Positions 14,361 to 37,077 of a stretch of DNA of 64,000 nt are shown in pieces. Source of the DNA: Pseudogymnoascus verrucosus (lineage: Eukaryota). The position numbers and the translations under genes were made by a program. Within the stretch, counting starts at the first letter, position 1; every line of letters starts with the position of its first letter. The stretch lies in NCBI GenBank assembly GCA_001662655.1, contig KV460246.1. The stretch is one strand, 5' to 3'. The notes under the pieces were generated by a model. The model saw only the letters and a program-made list of their open reading frames with translations. It made no database searches and was not told where the DNA came from.

Positions 14361-14717
14361 CTAGTTTTTGGGAGCCACCTGAGTCCGAAACCTCTTCCCA
14401 ACGAATTCTGTTATATCTAGTGGTGTCTCCAATGGCTGATCGACCTCGGCAGACCAGCTTTGCATCAACTCTAAGCAGCATAATGGCTCTCGCATAGCCT
14501 GGAGATACCAAAAGGTACCATTCTCATGTTGACTTCGCATCTGGTGAGAAAAGCCATGGTCTTTGCCCAATCTTGACTCTTCGTCCTGCAACACCTTTAT
14601 GAAGCTTGGAAACTGGACTTTAAAGGCACGTCTCTCTTCGGACGACCAGTCCCAGGGGTCTGGATTCGGTAACAACCAAGGAGGAGGGGATGGTTGTTTG
14701 AAACTTCTTCCTACCAC
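14361..14717 (-). pseudogene. C-terminal fragment resembling fungal APH/phosphotransferase-like proteins
   Basis: PPPWLL...FIKVLQDEE...MRSQHENGTFWY resembles the C-terminus of fungal APH-family kinases. No kinase core is visible upstream. Confidence 0.45.
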
Positions 14718-15091
14718 CTAATTTATGTTTTCTCATTTCACAAATACCTCTTGTAATATCCCCAATAAGCCATAATTGAGGCCGAAACCCCTCGAAAATA
14801 CATGACAATACCACAGCCACCAACACCGCCGCCAACACGACTACAAACACCATCACAAACATAGCCGCCAATATGGCTACACGGATGAATCCAGCGTTCT
14901 GCTCAAACCCATAAATTTCCCGCTAGGCACCAGTTTAGTTATTCTGAACTAATTGAAAGTTGAACGTGTACTTCGAGCGAAGCGAAATGTTGGTATGACT
15001 ATTAGCCTCATCCTTACCAACACACCTGACCTGGTAAGACTTCACTTCTACAAACCTACGCAGTTCACGGAACGGCAATATTAGCACTATC

Positions 15092-16336
15092 ATGGCGGAC
15101 CGCGATGTCAAACCCGATGAGTGTCTACTAACGCATATCTTTACTGATAATCAACCAAAGTCCATCTCTATCTTTCTTCAGGGGTGGGACAAATGTGTGT
15201 TTAAAGCAGAACTCCCGAATGACCCCCAGAACGATTACACTACATGTGTAGTCCGGTTGGAGAGCGAGGATGAGAAACCCAAAATTTCGCAATGATTGCC
15301 GCCATGCAACGCATCGCTGCGACTATAATTCCAGATCTCATCCCAAAGACCTATCAAATCGGCAAGGCAGTAAACGCGCAAGGGCGAATGTTCCACTTCT
15401 CAGTAGTTGAACTTGTGGAGGGTGATCTCTTGGAAGATGTCTGGCAGCTGATGAGCGCCGGTGAGCAAAACAGTGTTGTAGCTGACCTTGTTGAAGCGCT
15501 CGAAAAGCTACACTCTGTTCGGCTATGTGATAATATGGCCCAGGACGTTCTACGCAAGATGCTTCGTGAAGATGGCGAGGAGCTTCGGCCTTTTTTTGGA
15601 AACGCCTGGCGTCTTTGGTGGACCTCATACAGGAGTTTTAAACAGCGGGCATGGATTGCTATACTCTATCATGGAAAAGAGAAAGCTAAAGAAGTCATCA
15701 TTCTGTACTATGGACCCCGTGAATTATTCACAAGATGTCAGGATCCAGTCTAGTTTTGAAGACATGAGGTCGATGGTCATTAACAATTCCGACATTAGCA
15801 AATGGGCAGGAGAATCCGTACTTTGCCACAACGATCTCACACCACGCAACCTAATACTTCAACCACGCCCCTCAGCAGATGGTAAATCCAATTACAAGTT
15901 GGCCGGTATCATAGACTGGGAGATGGCTGGATTCTACCCGCCCTCATATGAGCTAGGTCTGCAGGATACATAGTTTTGTGCCGATCGACATGTGTCATTC
16001 TACCTGCTACCAAAGGAGCACATGAAAAACATTGTACCACGATCTTCATCACAGATTGCGCTTGTGAAAGCAAATGCGCTCATCTACGAATCACAACAGC
16101 GAAAACTGTCAAATGGTACTAATATTTCATCTCACATTCGAAAGAGGGTCATAGAGAACTCAAAGCTAACTCGGGATAATGATCCCTATGTCGGCTGGAC
16201 AAGAAGCTCACAGGATGGACTCCTTCCCGATTACTCTAGCGCTGCTTTCCAGAAATTAGAGGATGACCTGGTGGAGGAAATGCTTGCAAGGAGGAAATTA
16301 AAGGCCGAATTTAATTCAATGGCACGGTCACAGTAA
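15092..16336 (+). pseudogene. Disrupted aminoglycoside-phosphotransferase/choline-kinase-like gene
   Basis: Brenner motif CHNDLTPRNLIL and IIDWEMAGFYP. The frame is broken by a frameshift near 15285, a frameshift in the T7 run at 15591-15597, and an in-frame TAG at 15971-15973. Confidence 0.8.
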
Positions 16337-16520
16337 CCGCGCAATGATGGGTATGAAATTGTGTAACAAAAGAAGGGACAAGCAGTTTTCAGCAAAATAA
16401 AGCCCCCCATATGATAATGACCGAGTGGAAATATGTCTCTGTGAAATGTATAGTATAATACAGAAGCCTACTCAAAGACGCTAAGTGACGACATCACACC
16501 CCCACGAATAATGTATCTCC

Positions 16521-18599
16521 TCATGCCGCCGCAGCCTGGATAATAACGTCGCTCGCCTTTTCGCTCACGATATAGATTGGTAAGGAGATGTAAAACCCTG
16601 GGATCTTGGGGAAAACGCTAGCATCAACTACCCTCAGTCCCTCCACGCCCCTGACCTTGAAATTCGAGTCTAGCACCGCCATCGGGTCACCATCAGCTCC
16701 AATAGGACATGTGCAGCTAGCGTGATGTCCCCAGGCCTCGTCCTTAATGAATTCCTTCATATCCGCCTCCGTGGTGACATTTGGGCCCGGCCAGACCTCG
16801 TTGAAGCCGCCATCGAGGGGAATCAGGCCCTTGAAGATCTTACGCGAGAATTTCATCGCCTCGTAGACGGCCTGGAGATCCTTGTCAGCTGCGCCATTGG
16901 CGGTCACGCCCGTGTCAAAGTAGTTAAAGTTGATATTGGGCATGTCGCGCGGGTCGGTAGAACGGAGAGTGACGGCGCCGGCGTTGTTCCTGCTGTGCGC
17001 CTTGAGAACAATCCAAGCCCAGTGATGGGCATCGTGTAGGGAGTCACTCGAGTATCCAGGGAAGTAGCCCTTGAACTTGGCCGGTGCGCCAGATATAAGG
17101 AGGTCCGGTTCGCCCTCGGCCACAGAGGACTTCTGGACGATGGCGATGGCGATACCATTGGTGCCGTAGGTGCCTTTGGCGATTGGGCCGATGCCGTTAG
17201 TCCACCTTGTTAGGCACGGATCTGGCATAGTCTCCATGAAAGTACATTTTTTCGTGATGAAGAAATCAGTCGGGCTGTCGCCGATGATAGTGTTCTCGTA
17301 GCGATCTTGTAAGTTGGTGCCAACACCGGGAAGGTCGACGACGACGGGGATGTCGAAAGATTCGAGCTCAGCGGCTGGGCCGATACCACTGAGTTTGAGT
17401 AGTTGAGGGGTGTTGAAAGCTCCAGCTGCCAGAATAACCTCGCGTGTGGCATTCACGCTTCCAGAGCCAGTAACTGTAGCAGAACCAGATCGGGGATCGG
17501 CCCTGTAGAGGCTTTGACCATCGAGGAAATCAACTCCAACAGCTTTGGGGGTTGGTCCGTCATGCGAGAAGCGAACCTTGGTGACGAGAGTTGTGAGCTT
17601 GATATCGAGATGGTACTTCCGAGAACCGTCCTTGTTGACAGCATTGGCTGTATCTAGAACTAAGTTGCGAGGTCCATTTCGTTTTGAGTCAGCCATAGCG
17701 AGGGGTACTTGGTAGAGTCCGGCCTTGCTAGATTGTCCTGGGGCATTGATGTCGCGAAGCAAAACTTGACCAAGACCTCCAACAGTGTTGACCAAAAGTC
17801 CAAGTAGACCCTTACCCATTGCAGTGCCAGCGGCAATGATGAGCGAGAGGAGCTTTGGGTCTTCAATCACAAGCGACAGGTCTGTAAGAGCTGTCCCAAG
17901 CCATCCATCAAAGCCATGGCCAATGATGCTGCTGGGGAGGTAGCGGTTCCTCTCTAGCTTCATGAAATACTTTCTCATCTTGTCTGGGCTCCAGGAATTA
18001 TCTCCTGTAATGGTCGCAATATTTGTCCAGTCACTGTCGTGTGGATAGATCGTGATCAAAGCATTGTGAGCCGAGCAACCACCAAGTGTTCCAGCTCTTG
18101 GGTACAGAATCCCCAGAGGGGTTGAGCCGCTTGGGGGGTTCAGTCCAACATACTGCTCGCCAGAAGTAGTTTGGTACACCATTTTAGAATCCTTCTGTTG
18201 TCGTGCCTCATCGGAATAATGGTTGACAAAATAATCCCATCGCATCGGTTCGTATTCCGTTGCCTGCAGCTGGAGAGCAGGAACTTGGTACTGTAACGCG
18301 CCGCCTTGGTCGTCTCCAGCATCTATCAGGAGAACTTTAAAGCCTGCAATGGCTAAGTTGGCAGCAACTGGACCGCCGCCGGGTCCCGATCCAACGACGA
18401 CGTATTCATAATTTTCCAGCCATGTTGTGTTTGAATCTGCCTGGCGCTTAGAATGGCCTTCATGAGGGTGGTTATGGAGGGCACTGGGGCAGTTAGTTCC
18501 TGCTTCTTTTTTGAGTGTAACATTTTGAGGTATAACATACGCTGCGAGTACAGTGCTTGTAAAAGACAGAAACACGCTCAAAGGCAATAAGGAGAGCAT
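16521..18599 (-). CDS. Secreted GMC (AA3) FAD oxidoreductase, intronless
   Basis: Signal peptide MLSLLPLSVFLSFTSTVLA, KR propeptide site, YVVVGSGPGG Rossmann motif, RAGTLGGCSAHNA, AGAFNTPQLLKLSGIG, WGHHASCTCPIG and LRVVDASVFP. Confidence 0.93.
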   Translation of the reverse strand: MLSLLPLSVFLSFTSTVLAAYVIPQNVTLKKEAGTNCPSALHNHPHEGHSKRQADSNTTWLENYEYVVVGSGPGGGPVAANLAIAGFKVLLIDAGDDQGGALQYQVPALQLQATEYEPMRWDYFVNHYSDEARQQKDSKMVYQTTSGEQYVGLNPPSGSTPLGILYPRAGTLGGCSAHNALITIYPHDSDWTNIATITGDNSWSPDKMRKYFMKLERNRYLPSSIIGHGFDGWLGTALTDLSLVIEDPKLLSLIIAAGTAMGKGLLGLLVNTVGGLGQVLLRDINAPGQSSKAGLYQVPLAMADSKRNGPRNLVLDTANAVNKDGSRKYHLDIKLTTLVTKVRFSHDGPTPKAVGVDFLDGQSLYRADPRSGSATVTGSGSVNATREVILAAGAFNTPQLLKLSGIGPAAELESFDIPVVVDLPGVGTNLQDRYENTIIGDSPTDFFITKKCTFMETMPDPCLTRWTNGIGPIAKGTYGTNGIAIAIVQKSSVAEGEPDLLISGAPAKFKGYFPGYSSDSLHDAHHWAWIVLKAHSRNNAGAVTLRSTDPRDMPNINFNYFDTGVTANGAADKDLQAVYEAMKFSRKIFKGLIPLDGGFNEVWPGPNVTTEADMKEFIKDEAWGHHASCTCPIGADGDPMAVLDSNFKVRGVEGLRVVDASVFPKIPGFYISLPIYIVSEKASDVIIQAAAA

Positions 18600-19886
18600 C
18601 TTGCATAAAAAACAAAAGCTCTGATAAGAACAGCAAAATGAATGACTGCGCTCGATGCTTAAAAGCAAAACTGCGTACAACCACCAGCCTCTAGTATTAT
18701 TTATTTGAGAGGCACAGCTTGGTCCATCCCAACTCCCGCAATGAATGACAGGTACTCTGCCACCAGCCTCGCGGCTGTGCCATTTTGGTCCCCGTAAGTA
18801 CGAACCATGTCAGCGCGGCCTAGATGCCGCAGTCCAGGAAAGGTTTGCCCCCCACTTGGCTTGACCTGCGCCAAGTGATAGATCCATAAAGTACAGACGG
18901 CCAATAAATAACACGGGCCATAAACGGCAGTGGTCGTCATGATGAAAACTGGAGCACGGATGCTTTGTTCGAAATTGTCGCCCTCTGCATAGTCTTGTCA
19001 TGCAGGAACAACAACCTGATTGAGTATGATCGCTGATAGGTGCAATTTGAGCACTGCCGGTTCCTTGGAAGTTTTCAAGATGCCGTGAGCCCTAAGCTTT
19101 CTCGAGGGTAACATCGGCTTTATTTGAAAGTTCCTACATATCTAGTGGATCAAACCGAACAGATGGTATATTATTATAGGAGGTCGTGGGCAGGCATGAT
19201 CCACGAACTCCTATAACTCGAACCCCGAAGGATAATATAAATTTGTCTGAAATGCAAGCATACTCGTACTCCGTATGAACCGAACGAGGGTACAGGGAGC
19301 GAAATTTCAAGCTATGAAACAGTGGCGTCGTCCGGAAAGTTCGTAGTCGGTTATTTGAGCCATTATTGGCAGGGAAGTGGATATGTCGTGCGGGGAGAAG
19401 ATGACTATGAGCGTGGCCCGCACCGAGCCCTTGCCACGCCGTGTGCGGCAGGGATAGAAATTGCGGGGATTCTGACAATGGCGGCAAGACTTACATAAGT
19501 GTCATTTTGACAGAAAGTCACTAACCCAACAAACCTTACGCCTCCGAGTAGTCTCCACGCCGTAAGATTGCACAATTATAATGAGAACAAGGAGAATAAA
19601 GAGGATAATGTCATTCCCCACTTATATTTTAATATGACAGAAAGACCCGATTAGTCTACAGCAACGGGCTAATTTTTTTGTGGCGGAGCTAATCTGCACT
19701 CCACTCTACACTGGGACAAGCCCCTTTGGCCACCCGCTCCCACTAGTAATATGTCCCACAATCAATCAATACATATGTCTTGCCAATATTTACATCAGAA
19801 ATGATAAGCCCCGTATCCCTATCATACATACATAATCGAACAAGTTGAATGGCAATCGGTGGAGGGGTACCCCGTCCCTTTGCCCC

Positions 19887-21477
19887 TTAAACAGAATTCT
19901 TGTACCTTTCGTCCTCCTGACGATTGTCCACTGGTACGAGTCCGATCACCGACGAACTTCCCTCGTGCTTCGATAAATTGGCATAATCGGATCTGCTTTT
20001 GCTTTGTGGCGTCAATGTAGTTGATAGCCTTCCTGTGCTTGACTGGCCCTTCTGAGTTGTCCCGAAAATGCTGGGGAAGACATTGCGGAACAATGCTCGG
20101 ATCGAAGGCATGCAGGCGCATATCACGCCAACTGGAACCTCAATCGTACTCCAATAACCTAGTTCCACATAGTCCTCTGTAGTTGCGTTAGCTGTGAAAT
20201 ATCATTTGCGGGAGTTAGAAAACCTACGTGTCAGATTTGTCGTATTGGCATATTTGGTGAAAGCTCGAATGCGCACGACACTGACGATGGTGACGCTACG
20301 AAACAGGATTAGCAAAATGTTTGGGGTGAGAGGTTGGGGAAGCATACAAGACTCCGACGCTAAACATCATCATGATCTGAATCTTCTTCTTCATCGACAT
20401 GTCGAGTTTGTAGAGCGACGGCAACGGCAATATCAAAGTTAAAACATCGAGAATGATACTGAATGTGGCAGACATCCAGCCCTGTAGATTGACGTTGCGG
20501 CATTTCGCCGGATAGGTACCGTCCCACGCTCTCCATGCTCCCGGAATAGGCCAGCATTGGAAAATAGAGATTGCTTCAAATGCGAGGAGATAGGCCACGT
20601 TTGCAGCTATCAAGGCATAGGCAAAGTATAGGAAACTTTTCTCGCGAAAGATTCGGAGGTATAGAAAAATGATGGAGATCTTCGTGAGAGGTACAATTGC
20701 AACGTACATCAACTCGTCCCAGTAATATATCTATTTATTATCAGCGATATTTATTGAAGATTGTCCAACCTGGGTCTCACGTAAAGAATGGATGTAATGT
20801 CGTCAGGATGGACGTTCCACATGTCTCTGCCCAGGCCATGATTGGCAACTATTCGTATTAGTTGTCAGAGAATATATGCTATTACAACTCAGGTGTACTT
20901 ACGAAGGACTGAAAAGGCACAAAAAGGAATAGTGATGGCCTAAATTCAGTCAATATGCGTAGCCCCAAATATATATCAGGGTAGCCCTACCATGGTCACC
21001 ATGATAGTATAATCGTCTATGCCGAACTGCCCCCCAGCACGTAAAACCTTTGATAGGATCCGAAGACCAACTGTAATTAGAGCCAGGACGCCAAATGTGA
21101 CTCCAACGATAGAAATGATCTTGGTTCTATCTTGTGGTACAACACCGCAGTAGTCATTGGAATACTTTTTGGTTGCGAGTTGGTCTCTGATTGAACAACT
21201 GGTGCCAACGCAAATGGTGATGTCTTTATTTAACTGAGCGTTGGTGCAGATGCACGTTTTGTCGGTGAGCGAGCACTCTGAGGCAATTATCAATTCGGTG
21301 ATACATGTTAACTGTTCGTCCGAGTAAGTTTCTGAGCTTTTGATCGGAACTTGGTGTATATCTTACCCCACATGATGGCGGTGGTGTGCCTTTGGGCGGC
21401 AATTCCACACCAGCAGCCACCAGGTTCGCATTGTAGACTGACAAAAGAACAGTCACGGCTATGGTTAGAAACTTCAT
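19887..21477 (-). CDS. PTH11-like GPCR-type membrane protein with an N-terminal CFEM domain; multi-exon
   Basis: Signal peptide and an 8-Cys CFEM domain (PSCGLTC...C...TCIC...C...C...C). PTH11/rhodopsin-domain motifs GIDDY, GLGRDMW, TKISIIFLYLRIF, IFQCWP, DVLTLILPL and WSTIEVPVGVICACMPSIR. Confidence 0.92.
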
Positions 21478-22380
21478 GGCCACAAAGTCCGGTGTTGAAT
21501 TCAAACGCCAAAGAAAAGAAGAAAAGAATATAACATGGCAAACATATTTGCAAGGTAAGATGGTATATCTTGTAGGTGGGTGAGCAAGACATTCAATGGA
21601 CGGACTTAGCCTATCCAGTGACAGGGAGTACGAGCAGGCAGCATGTCTCTGGCCTCGACGTCAAGGGTCCCAAGTGCCGAGCATGAGTGGCTGGGACCGT
21701 GTCAGTCTGCTCCTGTACTCTACTCCCCACAAGTTCTATAGTTTGCCCAGCCCTACTGTGTAATAATTCTGTTTCTCATACGGGGCCGTGCATTGTAGCT
21801 TCCCCAGTTGTAAGCGGCAAGGATATTCATGGCCGCCCCAATGGCACCACCTGTGCAGTATCTATTGACGGGTAAACGAATATTTACTCTACGGGCGGGT
21901 GAGATAGATTCTTCAAGGAGTCCAACGGAAGACATGCCCTAATTCAAAACACTGGCCGTCATTTTTGTGGATCGAAGTAAGCCGTTGTGCAGGACGTCCT
22001 GTATGTCCAAGGGGCTGCCCCGCTTAAGGTTGCATGGCGGATTTTGTTGGTGGGTGCCGGACCAGTTCCCGCCAGCTTGAGTAGATCGGCACTGCAGAGT
22101 CTGGGGACCGTAGCGCGGTCCCCAGTAAACCAATTTCCAGGGGGCAGGGCCGAATTCCACATGCCCAGCTTCCACTGCGCATGGGGCAATTACAACGACG
22201 AAAAACGTGCACGATGATCCGGACTTTTGGGCTAACTCAATCGATTCGTGGCCGGAATTACGTGCTGGCTGCGCCAAAAGGACAGGCGCCGTCGATGTGT
22301 TTTGATATCTTCTGTTTGCTCTGGGCATTCACTCTTGTCATTCTTTTTTGAGGTCGCGATTGAATTGTTTTTGTTTCAAT

Positions 22381-24016
22381 ATGAAAATCATAAGCTCCCT
22401 CGTTTCGCTTTCCGCTTTCAGCAGTGTCGCCTCTGCGTTTCCCTCCGTGGCCGGGGATTCATTGCTACCAGCCGATGTAATTACCAAGTTGGCTGAAGGC
22501 CTACGTGGCGTTGCCCAAGAAAGCCATGAAAAGCGATTTCTGGTTGACCCGTTGAGTACGCCAATTGACGGTGAGCAATACCCTTCTGTGGCCTGGCCAA
22601 TATCTAACATATCAACAACAGTAACGGGAGACCATTCCTTCATCCCTCCTGACTTTTCAGCGGGTGACCAGCGTGGTCCTTGCCCAGGACTTAACGCCCT
22701 GGCGAATCATGGATATATCGGGCGCAATGGCGTCACAAATGTGGGTGTGGCTTTATCATATGCGACAGGTACTTTATCCTAACGAATTATGCAGGTGATA
22801 GAGGCAACTGCAGCAATCAATAAAGGTGAGTGCTGGCAATTGATTCCGGATTTATGCACCTACTGATACTAAAGCAGTGTTCGGGATGAGTGTTGAACTG
22901 GGTGGCCTTCTCGCCGTCATGGGGACGGTTTTTGTTGGCAACCCTCTCTCTTTGGATCCAGGATTCTCTATCGGAGGGGAATCGACTGCGGTGAGCAATC
23001 TCCTTGGCAATCTGCTTGGGTTGTTAGGTAAAGTTTCCTCTGGAGTTGCCATTACCCCTCGCACCACTAAGACGTTTTACAGGAAAGCCGCGGGGTCTGG
23101 TCGGCTCCCATAACATCATTGAGTCAGATTCGTCAAATACTCGCAACGACTTATATTTGACCGGTGATAATGCCAACCTAGAGCTTAACCAATTTTCAGA
23201 ATGGTTTAACATGTCCAATGATGCTGTCGGCGACTTTAACATCGATGTCATGGCTGAGAGAGCAAATGTACGCTTCCAGCAGTCGAAAGCTACCAACCCG
23301 AACTTCTACTATGGTCCATTCACCGGCATGATCGCTCGCAATGCCGGATTTATTTTCCCCACGAGGATGTTTGCCAATTACTCCAAGGAGAATCTTTCGG
23401 GCTCGTTTAGTAAGATTGTCCGCTGGACTCGGAGGGATTGTTACTAACTTCATCTAGCCAAGGATATCATCAAGAGTTTCTTCGCCGTCGAGGGAGAACC
23501 AGGCAATTTTACTTACAACCAGGGCTGGGAAAGGATTCCAGAGAATTGGTATCGCATTCCCGTCGACTATACTCTCGTCCAGTTGAACCTTGATATTCTC
23601 TACTTTGTTGCAAAGCACCCCGAGCTTGGCAGGTGAGATTTGACCCCTCCAATTATATCGCTTTTTATTCAGCTCTAACAACGCTGCGTAGCATTGGTGG
23701 CAACACTGGAACTGTGGATAGTTTCACGGGCGTTGACATGGACGACCTGACTGGTGGACTCTTGAATGCTCAGACTCTTCTTGAGGGCAACAACCTTCTC
23801 TGCTTCGTCTTCGAGGTCCTCAAGACTCTCTCACCCAACTCCCTGTCAACCGTCTTTGATATCATCGAAGTCCCTCTCCAGATGCTCTTTGATACCGTTG
23901 GTGCTGCACTTCTCGACTTGACTTGCCCAGCTTTCAAGGATTTGACGGTTGGTGGCCAGGGCTTGGGGGACGCCATAGAGTCTATGTTCCCAGGAGCTGC
24001 AAAGGGCAGCATCTAA
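22381..24016 (+). CDS. Secreted heme-thiolate peroxidase / unspecific peroxygenase (chloroperoxidase family), 7 exons
   Basis: Signal peptide, KR site, DQRGPCPGLNALANHG (proximal Cys PCP motif), SHNIIESDSSNTRND, NPNFYYGP and GWERIPENWYR. Six canonical introns. Confidence 0.92.
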
Positions 24017-24348
24017 GAGGCTGCCAGCAAAGATACTCGGAGTTTGGTTTTTCCCAAAGATTGATATATTGTCACATAGATTTGTCTCGCCGTGGACATC
24101 TAATATTGACGCGCAACGCTTCTATATGACGAGATAGTTACTGTTACATAGTGGTTCACATGCCCTGAGGTTCACCTATTACGCCTGATGGCATCGGCAA
24201 AACTGTTACTGTAGTATTGTATAATATAAAATAAATAAACATATAGCCCGAACTCCTTCTAGTACAAAATTGACAGCCCCGGACAAAAGAAAGAACTAGT
24301 TCATACAGACTCCCAAATTTCGCCGACTACAGATGCTGCCTTGGTATG

Positions 24349-24828
24349 CTATCTCGGACGAAAAGGGATAGCTGCTGGTCTCCCAGCCCGGCGATCGACC
24401 CCCCGAGGCTGGACCTTGATTATTATAGGCCGAAGGTTGTCGTCTTCGTCTTCAGAATGGTGCTGAATCACTATTCGGGGCTGTGGCGCCATCTCCCGTC
24501 GCGGACGGGGTGCGGACTCTCCTCGAGGCTGGGGTGCCGCGTCTCTTTGCGGCCGGGGCTCCCATCGTGGTTGAGGCACGGCTTCTCCTCGAAGCTGGTG
24601 TGCAGGCTCTCTTTGCTGCCGGGGTGCTACCTCTCGTCGAGGTTGGGGCGCGGCCGCTCTTGGCTGGTGTCGCTCATTGGTGTTGAGAGGATAGTCTTTC
24701 AAAAGATTGCGACGAGCGTCAGATGCCGTCGCCCGAAACTTTGGGTCTTGCTCCAGGACGCAATATAGACTCTTACAAACGAGTTTGTAGTCTATCAATG
24801 ACTGGATTCTAGAATGCCCGGGTTGCAT
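24349..24828 (-). CDS. Small hypothetical protein with ~8-aa PQPRxE repeats
   Basis: 159-aa ORF with about eight degenerate (A)PQPR(R/G/W)E units. True start is uncertain. Confidence 0.4.
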   Translation of the reverse strand: MQPGHSRIQSLIDYKLVCKSLYCVLEQDPKFRATASDARRNLLKDYPLNTNERHQPRAAAPQPRREVAPRQQREPAHQLRGEAVPQPRWEPRPQRDAAPQPRGESAPRPRREMAPQPRIVIQHHSEDEDDNLRPIIIKVQPRGVDRRAGRPAAIPFRPR

Positions 24829-25000
24829 GTCAGGCTACCGAGCACTGGAATCCGTCGTGTCTTCATAGTGGGCGTAGTTTTTAACATCGAAAGACATGTT
24901 TGAATCTCATGTTTATATAAGCCGAGAAGATGGCCTGTCGACTACTTTTTGCATCTTCAAATCTATCAACTCTCGCGATATTTAGCGGTCTTTTCAAAAC

Positions 25001-25519
25001 ATGCATTTCTTCAAGATTTTAATGCTTGTAGCTATCCATCTTGGGCTTGCGTCAGCTCAGAAGCATTTGGTTAGCATTACGCCCCTTGCACCCTTTGAAT
25101 GGGAAGTCTAATATATAATAACCCTCTAGGGTGATTTATACAAGGATGAATCTTGTGGTGGCAAGGGAGCCAGATCCCTCGACGAAAATGCCTGCACTAT
25201 TATGTCTGATATGAAGAGTAACCCCCCGCATCCAAACTCCATCTATCCAGTACCTTCACTAACGCAACCGACTACATATCTATTAATTTTGTGGGCAATA
25301 ACCTGCTGTGCTATTGCTACGGGTATGTTTCTTCTTAGTACCAGCATCCGCCACTCACCTTATTTGCCGACCTCGCTATACAGCAATGAGGATTGCACCG
25401 ATACTCTCGCCATTAGGCGTGAAGACGATATAGGTCAAGGATGTAATGACTTTGGAATAAACTGGGCGACAGTGCAACCCGAGTGGCCGTATAAGTCGCT
25501 CAAATGTTTTGGAAGCTAG
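25001..25519 (+). pseudogene. Small secreted Cys-rich protein, copy 1 (intron-2 splice sites degenerate)
   Basis: Signal peptide MHFFKILMLVAIHLGLASA. Exons are homologous to copy 4. The intron-2 donor reads GA (25216) and the acceptor reads CAT (25275-25277). Confidence 0.65.
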
Positions 25520-26162: not shown

Positions 26163-26659
26163 ATGCATTTCTTCAAGACGTCAATGCTCCTGGCCATCCC
26201 TCTTGGGCTTCTGTCAGCTGCACCGGGTGATTAGATCGTTAGTATCTAGCCGCCCCTCAACCATTTTAATAAGAAAGCCAATACAAACTCTACCAGGGCT
26301 ATCTGTATGATTATCTAAGATGCTTTGGAAGTAGCGCGACCATAATCGACTCAGGTTGCGTCACCTTTAAACCAACTACTCCCCAGTATGAACCCCTACA
26401 TAAAACTACTATTGACAAATCCTACTATCCTGGCTTATCGTTGGATATATCCAGTTTACTACAGCTGTCTATTGCGAACATTTCGCGTATGTTTTATCTC
26501 TAGCTATCTGCATTTCTGCTTTTTCTAATACAATCCCCCTCTAGTCTTGGCTGTTGCCCGCCAACTGATGGCTATACATTGAAGAAAATTGAAGGGTGCT
26601 ACGACGTTATACCCGAGTCAACTCCCCATTCGATTAGATGTCACAAGAGGGAAAACTAG
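26163..26659 (+). pseudogene. Small secreted Cys-rich protein, copy 2
   Basis: Signal peptide MHFFKTSMLLAIPLGLLSA. In-frame TAG at 26232-26234 and an intron-2 acceptor reading GG (26443-26444). The remaining exons align with copy 4. Confidence 0.75.
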
Positions 26660-28195: not shown

Positions 28196-28708
28196 ATGCA
28201 TTTCCTTAAGATTTCAATGCTCTTGGCCATCCCCCTTGGGTTTGCGTCAGCTGCACCAGGTGATGATATAGTCAGTACTTCGCCTTACCAACCTTTTAAA
28301 ATAAGAATGCTATTATAAGCGCTATTAGGGCTTTTTACATGATAGTGGCTCTTGTAACGGAAACAACATCATCGTAAAGGACTCAGATTGCATTCCTTTC
28401 CCAAACACGACACCTACTACCAAGTATGAGCCCTACACGAAACCACTCGTCGACAAACTACCACTAACCTACTTAACTCTAGTTCCATTAATTTCACTAC
28501 AGATGTTTCTTGTACCTATTACCTGTAAGCCTCGCCTCACACTCAGCTGTCAATATATGGCTTTTGTTTGCTAAGACGCTCCTTATATAGTAATAGCGAC
28601 AACTGCACGTCAGACCAAACTATCGACTGGCAGGGAGGGGTTGCATGCTACGATGTGCCCTACAACACGGATCCTCTTTCGCTCAAGTGCACCAAGCTCA
28701 CAAACTAG
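28196..28708 (+). CDS. Small secreted six-Cys protein, copy 4 (intact, 109 aa); exons 28196-28270, 28329-28423, 28483-28524, 28591-28708
   Basis: Spliced product MHFLKISMLLAIPLGFASAAPGDDIGFLHDSGSCNGNNIIVKDSDCIPFPNTTPTTNSINFTTDVSCTYYLNSDNCTSDQTIDWQGGVACYDVPYNTDPLSLKCTKLTN. GT-AG introns lie at the same positions and phases as in the paralogs. TATATAAA near 28033. Confidence 0.82.
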
Positions 28709-32743: not shown

Positions 32744-34009
32744 ATGCCATATGAACTTAAGGGTCGTAACGTCCTCGTGACGGGGGGTTCGCGGTATGTT
32801 TTGTCATCTTTTTATCTCTCAGCTCGGGCCGGTGGTCGGCTGCGATTGTGACCTTGCGGGGTATCCAGCACCAGCACCTCCCTCTCAACACCACGATTTG
32901 GACTCACAACCCCAAACTGGACGTGGACTAATTACTACGCATGAACAAAAGTAGCTAACACCCCCCAAGCGGCCTAGGCGCACTCATCTGCGACAAATTC
33001 GCCAAAGAAGGCGCGAACCTAGTCATCAACTACGTGTCCAGCGCCGCGGCCGCTGAGGAGATCGCGAAGACGATTGAGAAGGAGTATGGAGTCAAGGCTT
33101 TTGTGGTGCAGGGGGATATGGGGCTCGAAGCCGATTGCGTGAGGGTTGTTGAGGAGTCGATTGCGAAGTTGGGGGGGTTGGATGTGATTATTTCGAATGC
33201 CGTTTGTCCTCCCATTCCCCCCCCCCCTTTTCCCCCTATCAACCGGGATCAAAACTGTAAGATTGTTTGCTGACCGTTGACATGGGATCCCACAGGGCTG
33301 GACGCGCTTCTCCTCCATCCACGACCTCCACGCCACCACCGCCGCCGACTGGGACACCTGCTACGCCGTCAACGTTAAAGCGCAGAACTACCTCCTTCGC
33401 ACCGCCTTGCCAACTTTCAACGCGAACCCCGAGGGCGGATCGTTCATCATGACCTCGTCGATTGCGGGGATGGCGGTGTCGGGGAGCAGCTTGCCGTATT
33501 GTGTGACGAAGGCGGCGCAGTTGCAGTTGATGAGGGTGTTTGCGGCGAGTCAGGGGCCGAAGGTTAGGTGTAATGCGGTTTGTCCCGGGTTGCTTTTGAC
33601 GGAGTGGGTGAGTAATGTGTTTTCTTTTTGCTTGGGTGGGGGCTGTTTGAAGGGGGGGAAGGTGGAGGAAGGGGTGGGGTGGAAAAGGGGGGAAGGATGT
33701 TATGATGCTAATATGTGAATGCAGGGCCAGAAATACCCTGAGGCGACAATCAAGTTCATGGAGGAGAGGGCGTACTTGAAGAAAGTGGTGAGTTATCCAA
33801 GATCAAGTCAGGAAGAAGCTGTGTTGATGAGTGGATAGACGGACCTTGAAGACTGCGCGCAGTCATTCATAGATACTGCACGGAACTCGTCCATGACGGG
33901 CCAGAAGATCGTTGTTGGTGAGTTTTCCCTTCCATTTCTGTGTCTGGGATGGGTGAAATGGGGACTTGAGCTGATGATGGTGGTAGATTCCGGGTTGTCG
34001 CAGTTATAA
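32744..34009 (+). CDS. Classical short-chain dehydrogenase/reductase, 6 exons
   Basis: VLVTGGSRGLG, DVIISNAG, TSSIAG, YCVTK (YxxxK), RCNAVCPG and MTGQKIVVDSG. Confidence 0.9.
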
Positions 34010-35336: not shown

Positions 35337-37077
35337 ATGGCCACATTTGTCGACGAAAAGGCCTCACCGGAGCCTGCCGCCACAAGTGATAACGATGGCC
35401 TGGAAGAGAACGCCACCGGAATTATCGAGGCTCCTGTCGCAAAAACAGCCGCAGACAAAGCACTCATTTTCAAGCAGGATTTGCGCATTGTACCTCTATC
35501 TGCGGGGATTTACCTGCTCTGCTACCTTGACAGATCAAATATTGGTAAAACATCCTCACTACCATCTTCTGATCATGTGCTGACTTCTGAAAGGCAATGC
35601 CAAAACATTGAATTCCAACGTCCACCATGATCTTCTTTCCGACACAGGAATGACTTCGTATCAGTTCACGTGAGTAGTTTAACCCTCCTCGATTTGATGA
35701 CTTGTCTCTAACAAGGCGAAAGAATCGCACTAATGGTCTTCCTTGTCGCCTATGCCGTTTTCGAAGTCCCATCCAACTACTTCTTGAAAAAGTTCAGCCC
35801 GAGCAAATGGATTGCCTTTCTCATGTTCTCCTGGGGAGTCATGACCGTTGGTCTCGGTGGAGCCCAATCATACGCCTCCGTCACTGCAGTGCGGTTCCTA
35901 CTCGGCGTTTTCGAAGCAGGTCTCTTCCCTGGATTAGTGTACTATCTGACCTTCTGGTATCGAACTGAAGAAAGATCGATGAGAGTTGCCATTATCCTAG
36001 CATCTGCAACCTTGGCTGGAGCCTTCGGTGGTGCATTGGCATATGGTATCGGCCACATGGATCAGGCTGGTGGTCTCTCCGCCTGGAGGTGGCTGTTTAT
36101 CATCGAGGGCATCCCGAGTGTTTTGTCCTCCGTAGCCGTCTTCTTCTTCCTGCCCGACTATCCCGAGACCGCTACATGGCTCACGGTCGAGGAACGTGCT
36201 CTTGCCGTTGAGCGCCTCCGTGTTGAAGGATCCCACAGTCACGGTGAGAGCTTGACTTGGGCTCAAGCTAAGTCTACATTGACCGACTGGCGCCTGTATG
36301 CTCATTTCGCGGTAAGAATTCTAATTCGCATCCTCTCGAATCGCTCTGACTGGAAGTAGATCTACTTCGGCATTTCTGTCCCATTCTCGTCACTATCTCT
36401 GTTTACGCCAAGTATTACCGCTGGACTGGGTTATGCCAACCTTGAGGCCCAGCTGATGACTGTGTCGCCATACGCTGTTGCTTGTAAGTCTCTTCTGCAT
36501 TTGGCAATCCACCCAAGAAACAGTAACTGACGGTTGATTCAGATGTCGTGACGATTTTCGTCTCATGGTCTGCCGACCATTACAACGCCCGCGGCCTCCA
36601 CACCGCTGGCGCTGCCCTCGTCGGCGCATGCGCTTTCATGGCTAGCGCTCTCCTCCCCGCCACTGCCTACCAAGTACGTGCCTGCCCAATTATAATAATA
36701 CCCCCATTCCAACCACCTAACCTCCAAACCAGAAACGGTACGGCTGCCTCATCGTCGCCTGTTCGGGAGCATTTGCCACCATCCCGCCCCTGCTTGGCTG
36801 GCTCTCCTCGAACGTACAAAGCACAGCCGCGACCGGTCTCGCCATCGCTCTCAACATCTCGTTTGGTGCTCCGGGTCAGATCACGGGGGTTTGGATCTAT
36901 ACTGCGGATGAGGCGAAAAGGGGGTATCCAACTGGTCACTGGGTTAATGCTGGGATGTTGTTCTTTGTTGCGGTGGGATCTGTGGCTCTTGGGCTTTACT
37001 ATAGGATGCTGAATCGCAGGATTTTGAAGAGGGGGGCTGTTGGTGGGCAGACTGTTGAGAAGTTGTATAGGTATTAG
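35337..37077 (+). CDS. MFS transporter, anion:cation symporter (Dal5/Tna1-like) family; multi-exon
   Basis: KQDLRIVP, YLDRSNIGNAK, FEVPSN, RFLLGVFEAGLFPG, LTFWY and WRWLFIIEG. Confidence 0.92.

Follow-up and report, generated by a model that had tools for sequence, protein, structure and literature searches.

An ancient three-gene module encoding a heme-thiolate peroxidase, a CFEM receptor-like protein, and a GMC flavoenzyme in Pseudogymnoascus verrucosus and other Pezizomycotina

Introduction

Aryl-alcohol oxidases (AAOs) of the GMC family are described as suppliers of peroxide, and cascades that pair an AAO with an unspecific peroxygenase (UPO) work in vitro, according to two reports (PMC7358221 and PMC5880071). 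One study describes the Arg/Glu pair of the peroxygenase AaeUPO as crucial to forming Compound I (PMC6417270), and a preprint portrays Pth11-like receptors as a family that exceeds all others in size and dynamism, whose loops vary and whose members number 37 to 95 per genome (bioRxiv 10.64898/2026.06.16.732702). Here, we analyzed a 64,000-nucleotide stretch of Pseudogymnoascus verrucosus DNA (contig KV460246.1 of assembly GCA_001662655.1), referred to below as the window, in which positions 16521 to 24016 hold three adjacent genes. These encode a heme-thiolate peroxidase resembling UPOs, a PTH11-class protein with a CFEM domain and seven predicted transmembrane segments (7TM), and a GMC flavin oxidoreductase. 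We refer to the three genes as the trio and, for brevity, to the CFEM/7TM protein as the receptor. In the literature searched, no report came to light of an AAO-type GMC enzyme that is naturally and conservedly paired in the genome with both a peroxidase and a 7TM protein.

Heme-thiolate genes have also been placed in toxin clusters, including FscJ (fusarochromene), DotB (dothistromin), and StcC (sterigmatocystin), where their pathway roles are untested or doubted; unlike those clusters, the trio has no accompanying pathway genes. It resembles backbone-less fungal clusters (catabolic or "cryptic" clusters, the targets of tools like CLOCI), in which nonhomologous genes are adjacent across taxa while their flanks change, but differs from them in its makeup: two secreted enzymes accompany a receptor-like membrane protein, and neither a transporter nor a transcription factor is present. 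The main text of the CLOCI paper makes no mention of peroxidase, GMC, CFEM, or rhodopsin, and no description of the trio was found in the open PubMed Central and bioRxiv literature, with subscription journals and supplements lying outside this search. Standard cluster finders, which seek a backbone gene, would not report it. We conclude that the trio is a real and ancient module, undescribed in the literature searched, and that its three genes probably work together.

Conservation of the trio

In the window, the peroxidase gene (22381-24016, plus strand) and the receptor gene (19887-21477, minus strand) stand head to head, with 903 bp between their start codons (21478-22380), a putative shared promoter. 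The GMC gene (16521-18599, minus strand) follows the receptor gene in tandem, 1287 bp (18600-19886) separating the receptor stop from the GMC start. This layout agrees with the initial annotation, which was made from the letters of the window and had placed three intact genes here in this order and orientation.

An alignment of 23 GMC orthologs was scanned against metagenomes, and the 80 loci obtained, with flanks of up to 10 kb, were searched by tblastn with pieces of the window open reading frames (ORFs) and with Pseudogymnoascus orthologs. Five loci (L003, L009, L018, L025, and L035) carry the full trio, with the peroxidase on the minus strand and the receptor and GMC genes on the plus strand, which is the arrangement of the window; the divergent layout of peroxidase and receptor is thus kept in five loci besides our own. 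Peroxidase matches cover 385 to 427 of 438 residues in the four complete loci and 279 of 438 in L035, where the contig ends, and receptor matches cover 285 to 367 of 424 residues. A sixth locus (L010) holds the receptor and GMC genes on a contig that stops before the position of the peroxidase. The nearest named GMC proteins of the trio contigs come from Penicillium oxalicum (79 to 84% identity), Exophiala (90%), and Scytalidium (85%), and in a GMC tree that is broadly taxonomic, these contigs fall among Eurotiales, Chaetothyriales, and Leotiomycetes. The orthologs of the trio, which might have proved to be unlinked in other fungi, thus reappear there with their order and orientation intact.

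Nothing else travels with these genes: in an all-against-all comparison of ORFs, only the three genes were common to the trio lineages. Conversely, no receptor-like or peroxidase-like match was present at 70 other GMC loci (702 kb), including 33 loci of paralogs (300 kb). When loci with a GMC gene of at least 57% identity and approximately 3 kb or more of upstream sequence were grouped, 15 lineages resulted, of which 5 have the full trio, 1 has the receptor and GMC genes, 1 has a decayed copy, and 8 have neither neighbor (the JAABU clade, L007/L022, L020/L021, L038, L039, L047, L006, and L062). The decayed copies lie beside an intact GMC gene in L004 (5772-8647) and L008 (7232-8629); both include receptor-like sequence on the opposite strand with 15 to 16 stops, and L004 alone retains a 76-residue relic of the peroxidase C terminus, also with stops. 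Judging from the full trios, the partial and decayed copies, and the absences, the arrangement looks ancestral for much of Pezizomycotina, with repeated loss or dispersal. A PTH11-like gene in L006 and L062 was considered as a trio receptor and treated as a paralog instead, being on the opposite strand and 28 to 34% identical.

Signs of linkage in named genomes, namely locus tags, shared contigs, and a fused gene model, were found in Fusarium, Neonectria, Colletotrichum, and Rhexocercosporidium. In the last of these, one gene model (P0021) fuses the receptor (53% identity) with the GMC enzyme (74%), and the peroxidase of this fungus is assigned to the same contig. Locus tags indicate linkage in four Nectriaceae species: peroxidase and GMC genes are two genes apart in Neonectria punicea (QQX98_007146 and QQX98_007148) and Fusarium nematophilum (ACJ41O_005785 and ACJ41O_005787), and peroxidase and receptor genes adjoin in F. 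musae (J7337_013136 and J7337_013137) and F. piperis (N0V84_009698 and N0V84_009699). In 12 of 17 species matching both enzymes, with 2 more being ambiguous, the GMC and peroxidase genes lie on contigs of equal size, an indirect sign that is weak for megabase contigs. The module thus reaches from this Pseudogymnoascus to other Leotiomycetes and to Eurotiomycetes, with order and orientation the same, and to Sordariomycetes as judged by locus tags and shared contigs. A set of consecutive genes listed in a transcriptome study of F. verticillioides, FVEG_08767 (glucose 1-dehydrogenase 2), FVEG_08768 (cercosporin resistance protein), and FVEG_08769 (aromatic peroxygenase), may be the trio in that species; these genes were not induced by 2-oxindole, whereas their neighbors were (PMC10512309).

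One further protein, P0083 of Neopestalotiopsis clavispora (998 aa), consists of a GMC ortholog followed by a C-terminal region of approximately 300 residues with several hydrophobic stretches. We considered this region as a CFEM receptor, which it is not; it is probably a merged neighbor.

Gene models and transcription

The GMC gene encodes 673 aa in two exons (18541-18599 and 16521-18483, the latter including the stop), and its translation (16524-18599, minus strand) matches Pfam GMC_oxred_C (1.5e-28; 100.6 bits against a cutoff of 24.6) and GMC_oxred_N (1.3e-15; 58.2 bits against 23). For the receptor and the peroxidase, splice models were built from GT..AG sites. The receptor has 425 aa and seven exons (21367-21477, 20991-21311, 20903-20939, 20781-20848, 20348-20730, 20228-20295, and 19887-20176), with its ATG at 21477, and minus-strand ORFs at 19887-21362 match CFEM (9.6e-11) and Fung_rhodopsin (3.2e-38 and 5.1e-09). 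The peroxidase has 438 aa, likewise in seven exons (22381-22570, 22622-22740, 22795-22825, 22878-23027, 23083-23409, 23458-23632, and 23692-24016), with its ATG at 22381; plus-strand ORFs at 22306-23447 match Peroxidase_2 (2.8e-14 and 1.1e-15), at 54.5 and 59.1 bits on two exons against a cutoff of 26.9.

All three models align end to end with annotated Pseudogymnoascus proteins, the peroxidase with P0122 (97.7% identity, 438 of 438 residues, no gaps), the receptor with P0232 (96.7%), and the GMC enzyme with P0001 (91.6%). Together with the Pfam domains and the splice models, these alignments bear out the reading of three intact genes. The closest database matches are from Pseudogymnoascus sp. 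24MN13 for a peroxidase exon (100% identity), Pseudogymnoascus sp. 05NY08 for a receptor exon (97%), and Pseudogymnoascus sp. VKM F-4281 for the GMC enzyme (89%). An N-terminal hydrophobic stretch in each of the three proteins (12-aa Kyte-Doolittle maxima of 2.07, 1.78, and 2.57) is consistent with the signal peptides predicted earlier, and the propeptide-type KR sites that had been proposed for both enzymes are found at residues 31-32 of the GMC enzyme and 50-51 of the peroxidase. The peroxidase site is conserved (R52 is invariant and K51 is present in at least 90% of 26 orthologs), and both sites may be cleaved by Kex2.

Transcription was assessed from contigs of runs X1 and X2, from one study, and X4, from a second study; X6 is a DNA run from a related strain. 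No run was recorded as RNA, and X1, X2, and X4 were assumed to be RNA; their contigs turned out to be spliced. Specifically, X1, X2, and X4 contigs join exons at GT..AG borders, and the X6 DNA is continuous through the introns. X1 and X2 each contain spliced contigs of all three genes, and X4 contains spliced GMC and peroxidase contigs along with receptor contigs that have no joints. Joints confirm five of the six receptor introns and four of the six peroxidase introns, and a single 2107-nt contig spanning 16498-18661 holds the whole GMC mRNA. All three genes are transcribed and spliced. Stretches with no X1 or X2 contigs (14368-16235 and beyond approximately 24642) are uninformative on expression.

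Two introns that lie in frame and contain no stops, one of 57 nt in the GMC gene (18484-18540) and one of 51 nt in the peroxidase gene (22571-22621), are both spliced out in the run contigs. Such introns make the read-through ORFs look intact and mislead a reading based on ORFs. The GMC gene had accordingly been taken for one uninterrupted ORF with a product of 692 aa; the joint from 18483 to 18541 in X1, X2, and X4 corrects this to 673 aa.

Active sites and relatives

The GMC enzyme resembles AAOs and other AA3 GMC oxidases as a predicted secreted flavin adenine dinucleotide (FAD) enzyme with the GMC fold and the catalytic His. Its dinucleotide-binding motif GSGPGGG (18372-18392, minus strand) occupies columns that are invariant in 23 sequences. 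The catalytic His, in the motif WGHHA (16722-16724, minus strand; His626 of the read-through and His607 of the spliced protein), aligns with that of structures 8rpf and 9lq0 and is conserved in 121 of 121 sequences. The second catalytic residue, which is His or Asn in GMC enzymes, is replaced in the trio enzyme by Tyr (16590-16592, minus strand; Tyr670 of the read-through and Tyr651 of the spliced protein). This residue aligns with His of 8rpf and Asn of 9lq0 and is Tyr in all 121 sequences. Among the metagenome loci, ortholog-level sequences have Tyr (39) or Phe (3) at this position and paralogs have Phe (28) or Tyr (4), with neither His nor Asn at any of these loci. Matches to solved GMC enzymes are weak (best E = 1.8e-35) and mostly confined to the C-terminal domain. 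Among the 120 matches listed, identity is 66 to 89% (89% within Pseudogymnoascus and 66 to 80% in other genera, across four classes), which is unusually high conservation for a secreted enzyme.

The peroxidase shares with AaeUPO, a long (group II) UPO (PDB 2YOR), the Peroxidase_2 domain, the PCP motif, the E-x-D-x-S Mg site, the S-I-G and SxxRxD motifs, a putative secretion signal, and a propeptide-like KR; its profile match to 2yor has an E value of 5.3e-20. The PCP motif (22678-22686, plus strand), whose Cys is the proximal heme ligand, aligns with that of AaeUPO, lies within GPCPG (22675-22689), and is present in 102 of 111 relatives, which were gathered with one exon. E-S-D-S-S (23121-23135, plus strand) aligns with the Mg site E122-G123-D124-x-S126 of AaeUPO, and the E..D..S pattern is found in 110 of the 111. 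In the stretch T244...R249...G252 (23322-23348, plus strand), Thr244 aligns with R189 and Gly252 with E196 of AaeUPO, both in the single-sequence phmmer alignment and in profile alignments; AaeUPO numbering was checked by counting along the alignment. Of the 109 relatives that cover positions 238-262, none has Asp or Glu there, and Thr244 (109 of 109), Arg249 (107 of 109), and Gly252 (104 of 109) are close to invariant. As read from these alignments, the canonical Arg/Glu pair is absent from the peroxidase clade.

The trio peroxidase further differs from AaeUPO in a conserved C-terminal region of approximately 100 residues that has no Pfam match and that in the ESM Atlas matches only its own family (0.78). 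An AlphaFold model of P0122 built with 26 sequences has a mean pLDDT (predicted local distance difference test) of 53.9, falling below 50 in the C-terminal region, too poor for a substitute acid residue to be located. No biochemically characterized member of this peroxidase clade was found in the literature searched.

The receptor resembles Pth11 of the rice blast fungus and class 14 receptors in its N-terminal eight-Cys CFEM domain, its seven hydrophobic helices, and its Fung_rhodopsin match. The CFEM domain (21147-21372, minus strand, by Pfam; the span includes the intron 21312-21366) has its eight Cys between residues 36 and 92, behind a signal-like N terminus, and seven hydrophobic segments follow. 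The Asp before Cys-x-Cys, which we take to be the heme ligand of Candida Rbt5-type proteins on the basis of the work on Csa2, is present in the window (TDKTCIC) and is Asn in 15 of 23 orthologs. Against the Pth11-like family at large, the trio member stands out as a stable ortholog across classes, tied to two enzyme genes and with a near-invariant loop. This loop, between helices 4 and 5 (FQC.PI.GAW..WDG....C, approximately residues 229-262 of P0232), is near invariant in orthologs from three classes. A complex prediction for receptor residues 22-375 with peroxidase residues 53-438 scored 0.00 and, having no controls, bears neither way.

Interpretation

With order and orientation conserved, flanks that have turned over completely, and all three genes expressed, the locus is best read as a functional module maintained by selection. 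We put the probability that the trio is an ancient module (peroxidase and receptor diverging across 903 bp, with the GMC gene behind the receptor) kept together by selection at roughly 60%. In such a module, one divergent promoter would drive the receptor and peroxidase genes, and the two secreted redox enzymes would have one extracellular small molecule, or successive extracellular intermediates, as their target, with the flavoenzyme oxidizing a hydroxyl group and the heme-thiolate enzyme transferring oxygen. At the plasma membrane, the receptor may sense the substrate or product or otherwise partner the enzymes. The wide range of lifestyles in which the trio occurs and the strong conservation of its GMC enzyme point to a common substrate rather than a host-specific one.

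Several observations weigh against this reading. The linkage is patchy, with the neighbors absent from 8 of the 15 GMC lineages that have enough upstream sequence and decayed beside an intact GMC gene in L004 and L008. GMC and peroxidase genes lie on different contigs in F. zealandicum, Coleophoma cylindrospora, and Fusarium sp. DS 682. The run contigs carry no expression levels, so that they demonstrate expression and not coregulation, and no 8-mer or 9-mer in the two intergenic regions was shared across 6 to 7 loci; the 19 7-mers in common are not convincing, shuffled sequences having given 10.2 on average and 18 at most. At their catalytic residues, both enzymes differ from characterized relatives, which leaves the analogies to AAOs and UPOs weak. 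Finally, a member of the peroxidase clade, FscJ, is annotated as part of the fusarochromene cluster, as considered below.

The initial annotation had gone further and proposed a specific wiring, in which a true peroxygenase would run on H2O2 from the GMC enzyme, with the receptor as a sensor of substrate, product, or redox state. What stands of this sense-and-oxidize module is a conserved unit, on the evidence of microsynteny, with spliced contigs of its genes in the same runs; the route from oxidase to peroxygenase is weakened by the departures at both active sites. In favor of this wiring, a secreted flavoenzyme and a secreted heme-thiolate enzyme are conserved in linkage, transcripts of all three genes come from the same runs, AAOs are described as supplying peroxide, and AAO-UPO cascades work in vitro (PMC7358221 and PMC5880071). 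Yet the R189/E196 pair, with which AaeUPO splits H2O2, is missing from the peroxidase clade, no acidic residue being present there in any of 109 relatives, the GMC clade has Tyr or Phe in place of the His or Asn of characterized oxidases, and an oxidase cannot be told from a dehydrogenase by sequence. We regard peroxide supply as a doubtful role for the flavoenzyme and the complete wiring as unlikely.

Somewhat less probable again is that the trio is a pathway fragment, providing tailoring or catabolic steps for one metabolite, with the 7TM protein being, instead of a receptor, one of the SAT4-like type of membrane protein found in toxin clusters. FscJ (P0171; "aromatic peroxidase fscJ" of F. 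equiseti in Swiss-Prot) belongs to the trio peroxidase clade, at 55.6% identity over 435 aa, and is listed in the fusarochromene cluster; Colletotrichum orthologs carry automatic names such as "dothistromin biosynthesis peroxidase dotB." FscJ, however, is assigned to its cluster by homology and position, at the cluster end, and its role is only predicted (PMC10967133). DotB likewise has no shown role in the dothistromin pathway and is doubted as a pathway member by its own authors (PMC3153176). The FscJ ortholog of F. musae adjoins a receptor gene, so that FscJ may itself be a trio peroxidase at a cluster border. Moreover, no backbone or pathway gene is conserved beside the trio in six lineages, and no polyketide synthase (PKS) or nonribosomal peptide synthetase (NRPS) was detected among the window ORFs scanned.

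The genes could also be linked without any shared biochemistry, through a shared promoter, a chromatin domain, or the slow decay of ancestral synteny, a possibility that we rate a little below the pathway fragment. The retained divergent promoter arrangement would fit, as would the loss or dispersal of the cluster in many lineages and the survival of the GMC gene alone in L004 and L008. Slow decay and a common promoter are harder to reconcile with flanks that have turned over fully while the order and orientation of three genes were kept across three classes, and with a GMC gene that lies behind the receptor gene, off the shared promoter.

A far more speculative extension, which we hold to be improbable, is that the trio represents a new extracellular oxygenase system, a secreted counterpart of two-component P450 systems older than the split of Eurotiomycetes, Leotiomycetes, and Sordariomycetes. 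With its acid-base pair lost, the heme-thiolate protein would depend on a dedicated flavoprotein partner. The His/Tyr flavoprotein might then deliver electrons or peroxide directly at the cell surface, and the CFEM/7TM protein might organize or sense the enzyme pair. That three common families of secreted and membrane proteins became neighbors by chance is very unlikely, even though PTH11-like, GMC, and heme-thiolate genes are all multicopy in Pezizomycotina, given the base rate of 37 to 95 Pth11-like genes per genome and the recurrence of the same orthologs, with order and orientation unchanged, in at least six separate lineages and nowhere in the 702 kb of other GMC loci.

The trio matters in several respects. 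Pth11-like proteins make up the largest receptor family of filamentous ascomycetes; to our knowledge, almost none of them has a known ligand, and the trio offers a route to one, in the form of a substrate or product of the linked enzymes. It also highlights two large and strongly conserved enzyme subfamilies, a heme-thiolate one without the Arg/Glu pair and a GMC one with Tyr, whose chemistry may differ from that of the peroxygenases and oxidases used in biocatalysis. Heme-thiolate genes such as FscJ, whose assignment to toxin clusters is positional, may instead be part of this module.

Genomic surroundings

The trio lies within a region of approximately 14 to 41 kb that Pfam places between housekeeping genes, with aconitase, a kinase/HEAT protein, and DRE2 on one side and S10 carboxypeptidase, SFM1, endosulfine, MYG1, ICE2, Spc25, and Rrn6 on the other. 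In agreement with the initial annotation, which had reported no backbone gene nearby, no PKS or NRPS domain was found in ORFs of at least 110 aa throughout the window or in ORFs of 55 to 109 aa at 14-16.5 and 24-41 kb. The 9 kb between 24 and 33 kb have no Pfam-recognizable ORF, and 128 short ORFs from the flanks yielded only one fragment of a short-chain dehydrogenase (SDR). It is plausible that the trio is surrounded by a pseudogene-rich island. Indices of repeat-induced point mutation (RIP) at 24-32 kb gave no RIP signal (TpA/ApT of 0.8 to 0.97).

Beside the GMC gene, a gene for an APH/choline-kinase-like phosphotransferase (15038-16333) is spread over overlapping frames. Compared with the window, X6 carries an extra T at 15284 and lacks one base at 15591, the second of these differences being shared by X4; the window copy is therefore frameshifted relative to those sequences, or the reverse.

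A short-chain dehydrogenase split over two ORFs and one 215-aa fragment of the major facilitator superfamily (MFS), at 32959-33715 and 35712-36356, could be intron-bearing genes or pseudogenes. On the peroxidase side, 25001-25089, 26163-26251, and 28196-28284 are three diverged copies (63 to 81% identity) of one unit that opens with an ATG and a hydrophobic, signal-peptide-like stretch (MHFFK...). Further blocks are common to the copies (25610/27730/28741 and 25739/27831/28839), and the whole, at 25-29 kb, resembles a small family of tandemly arranged genes for secreted proteins, or what is left of one. An X6 DNA contig tracks the window from 14487 to 24893 and is unlike it thereafter, which indicates a strain-specific breakpoint approximately 0.9 kb beyond the peroxidase stop.

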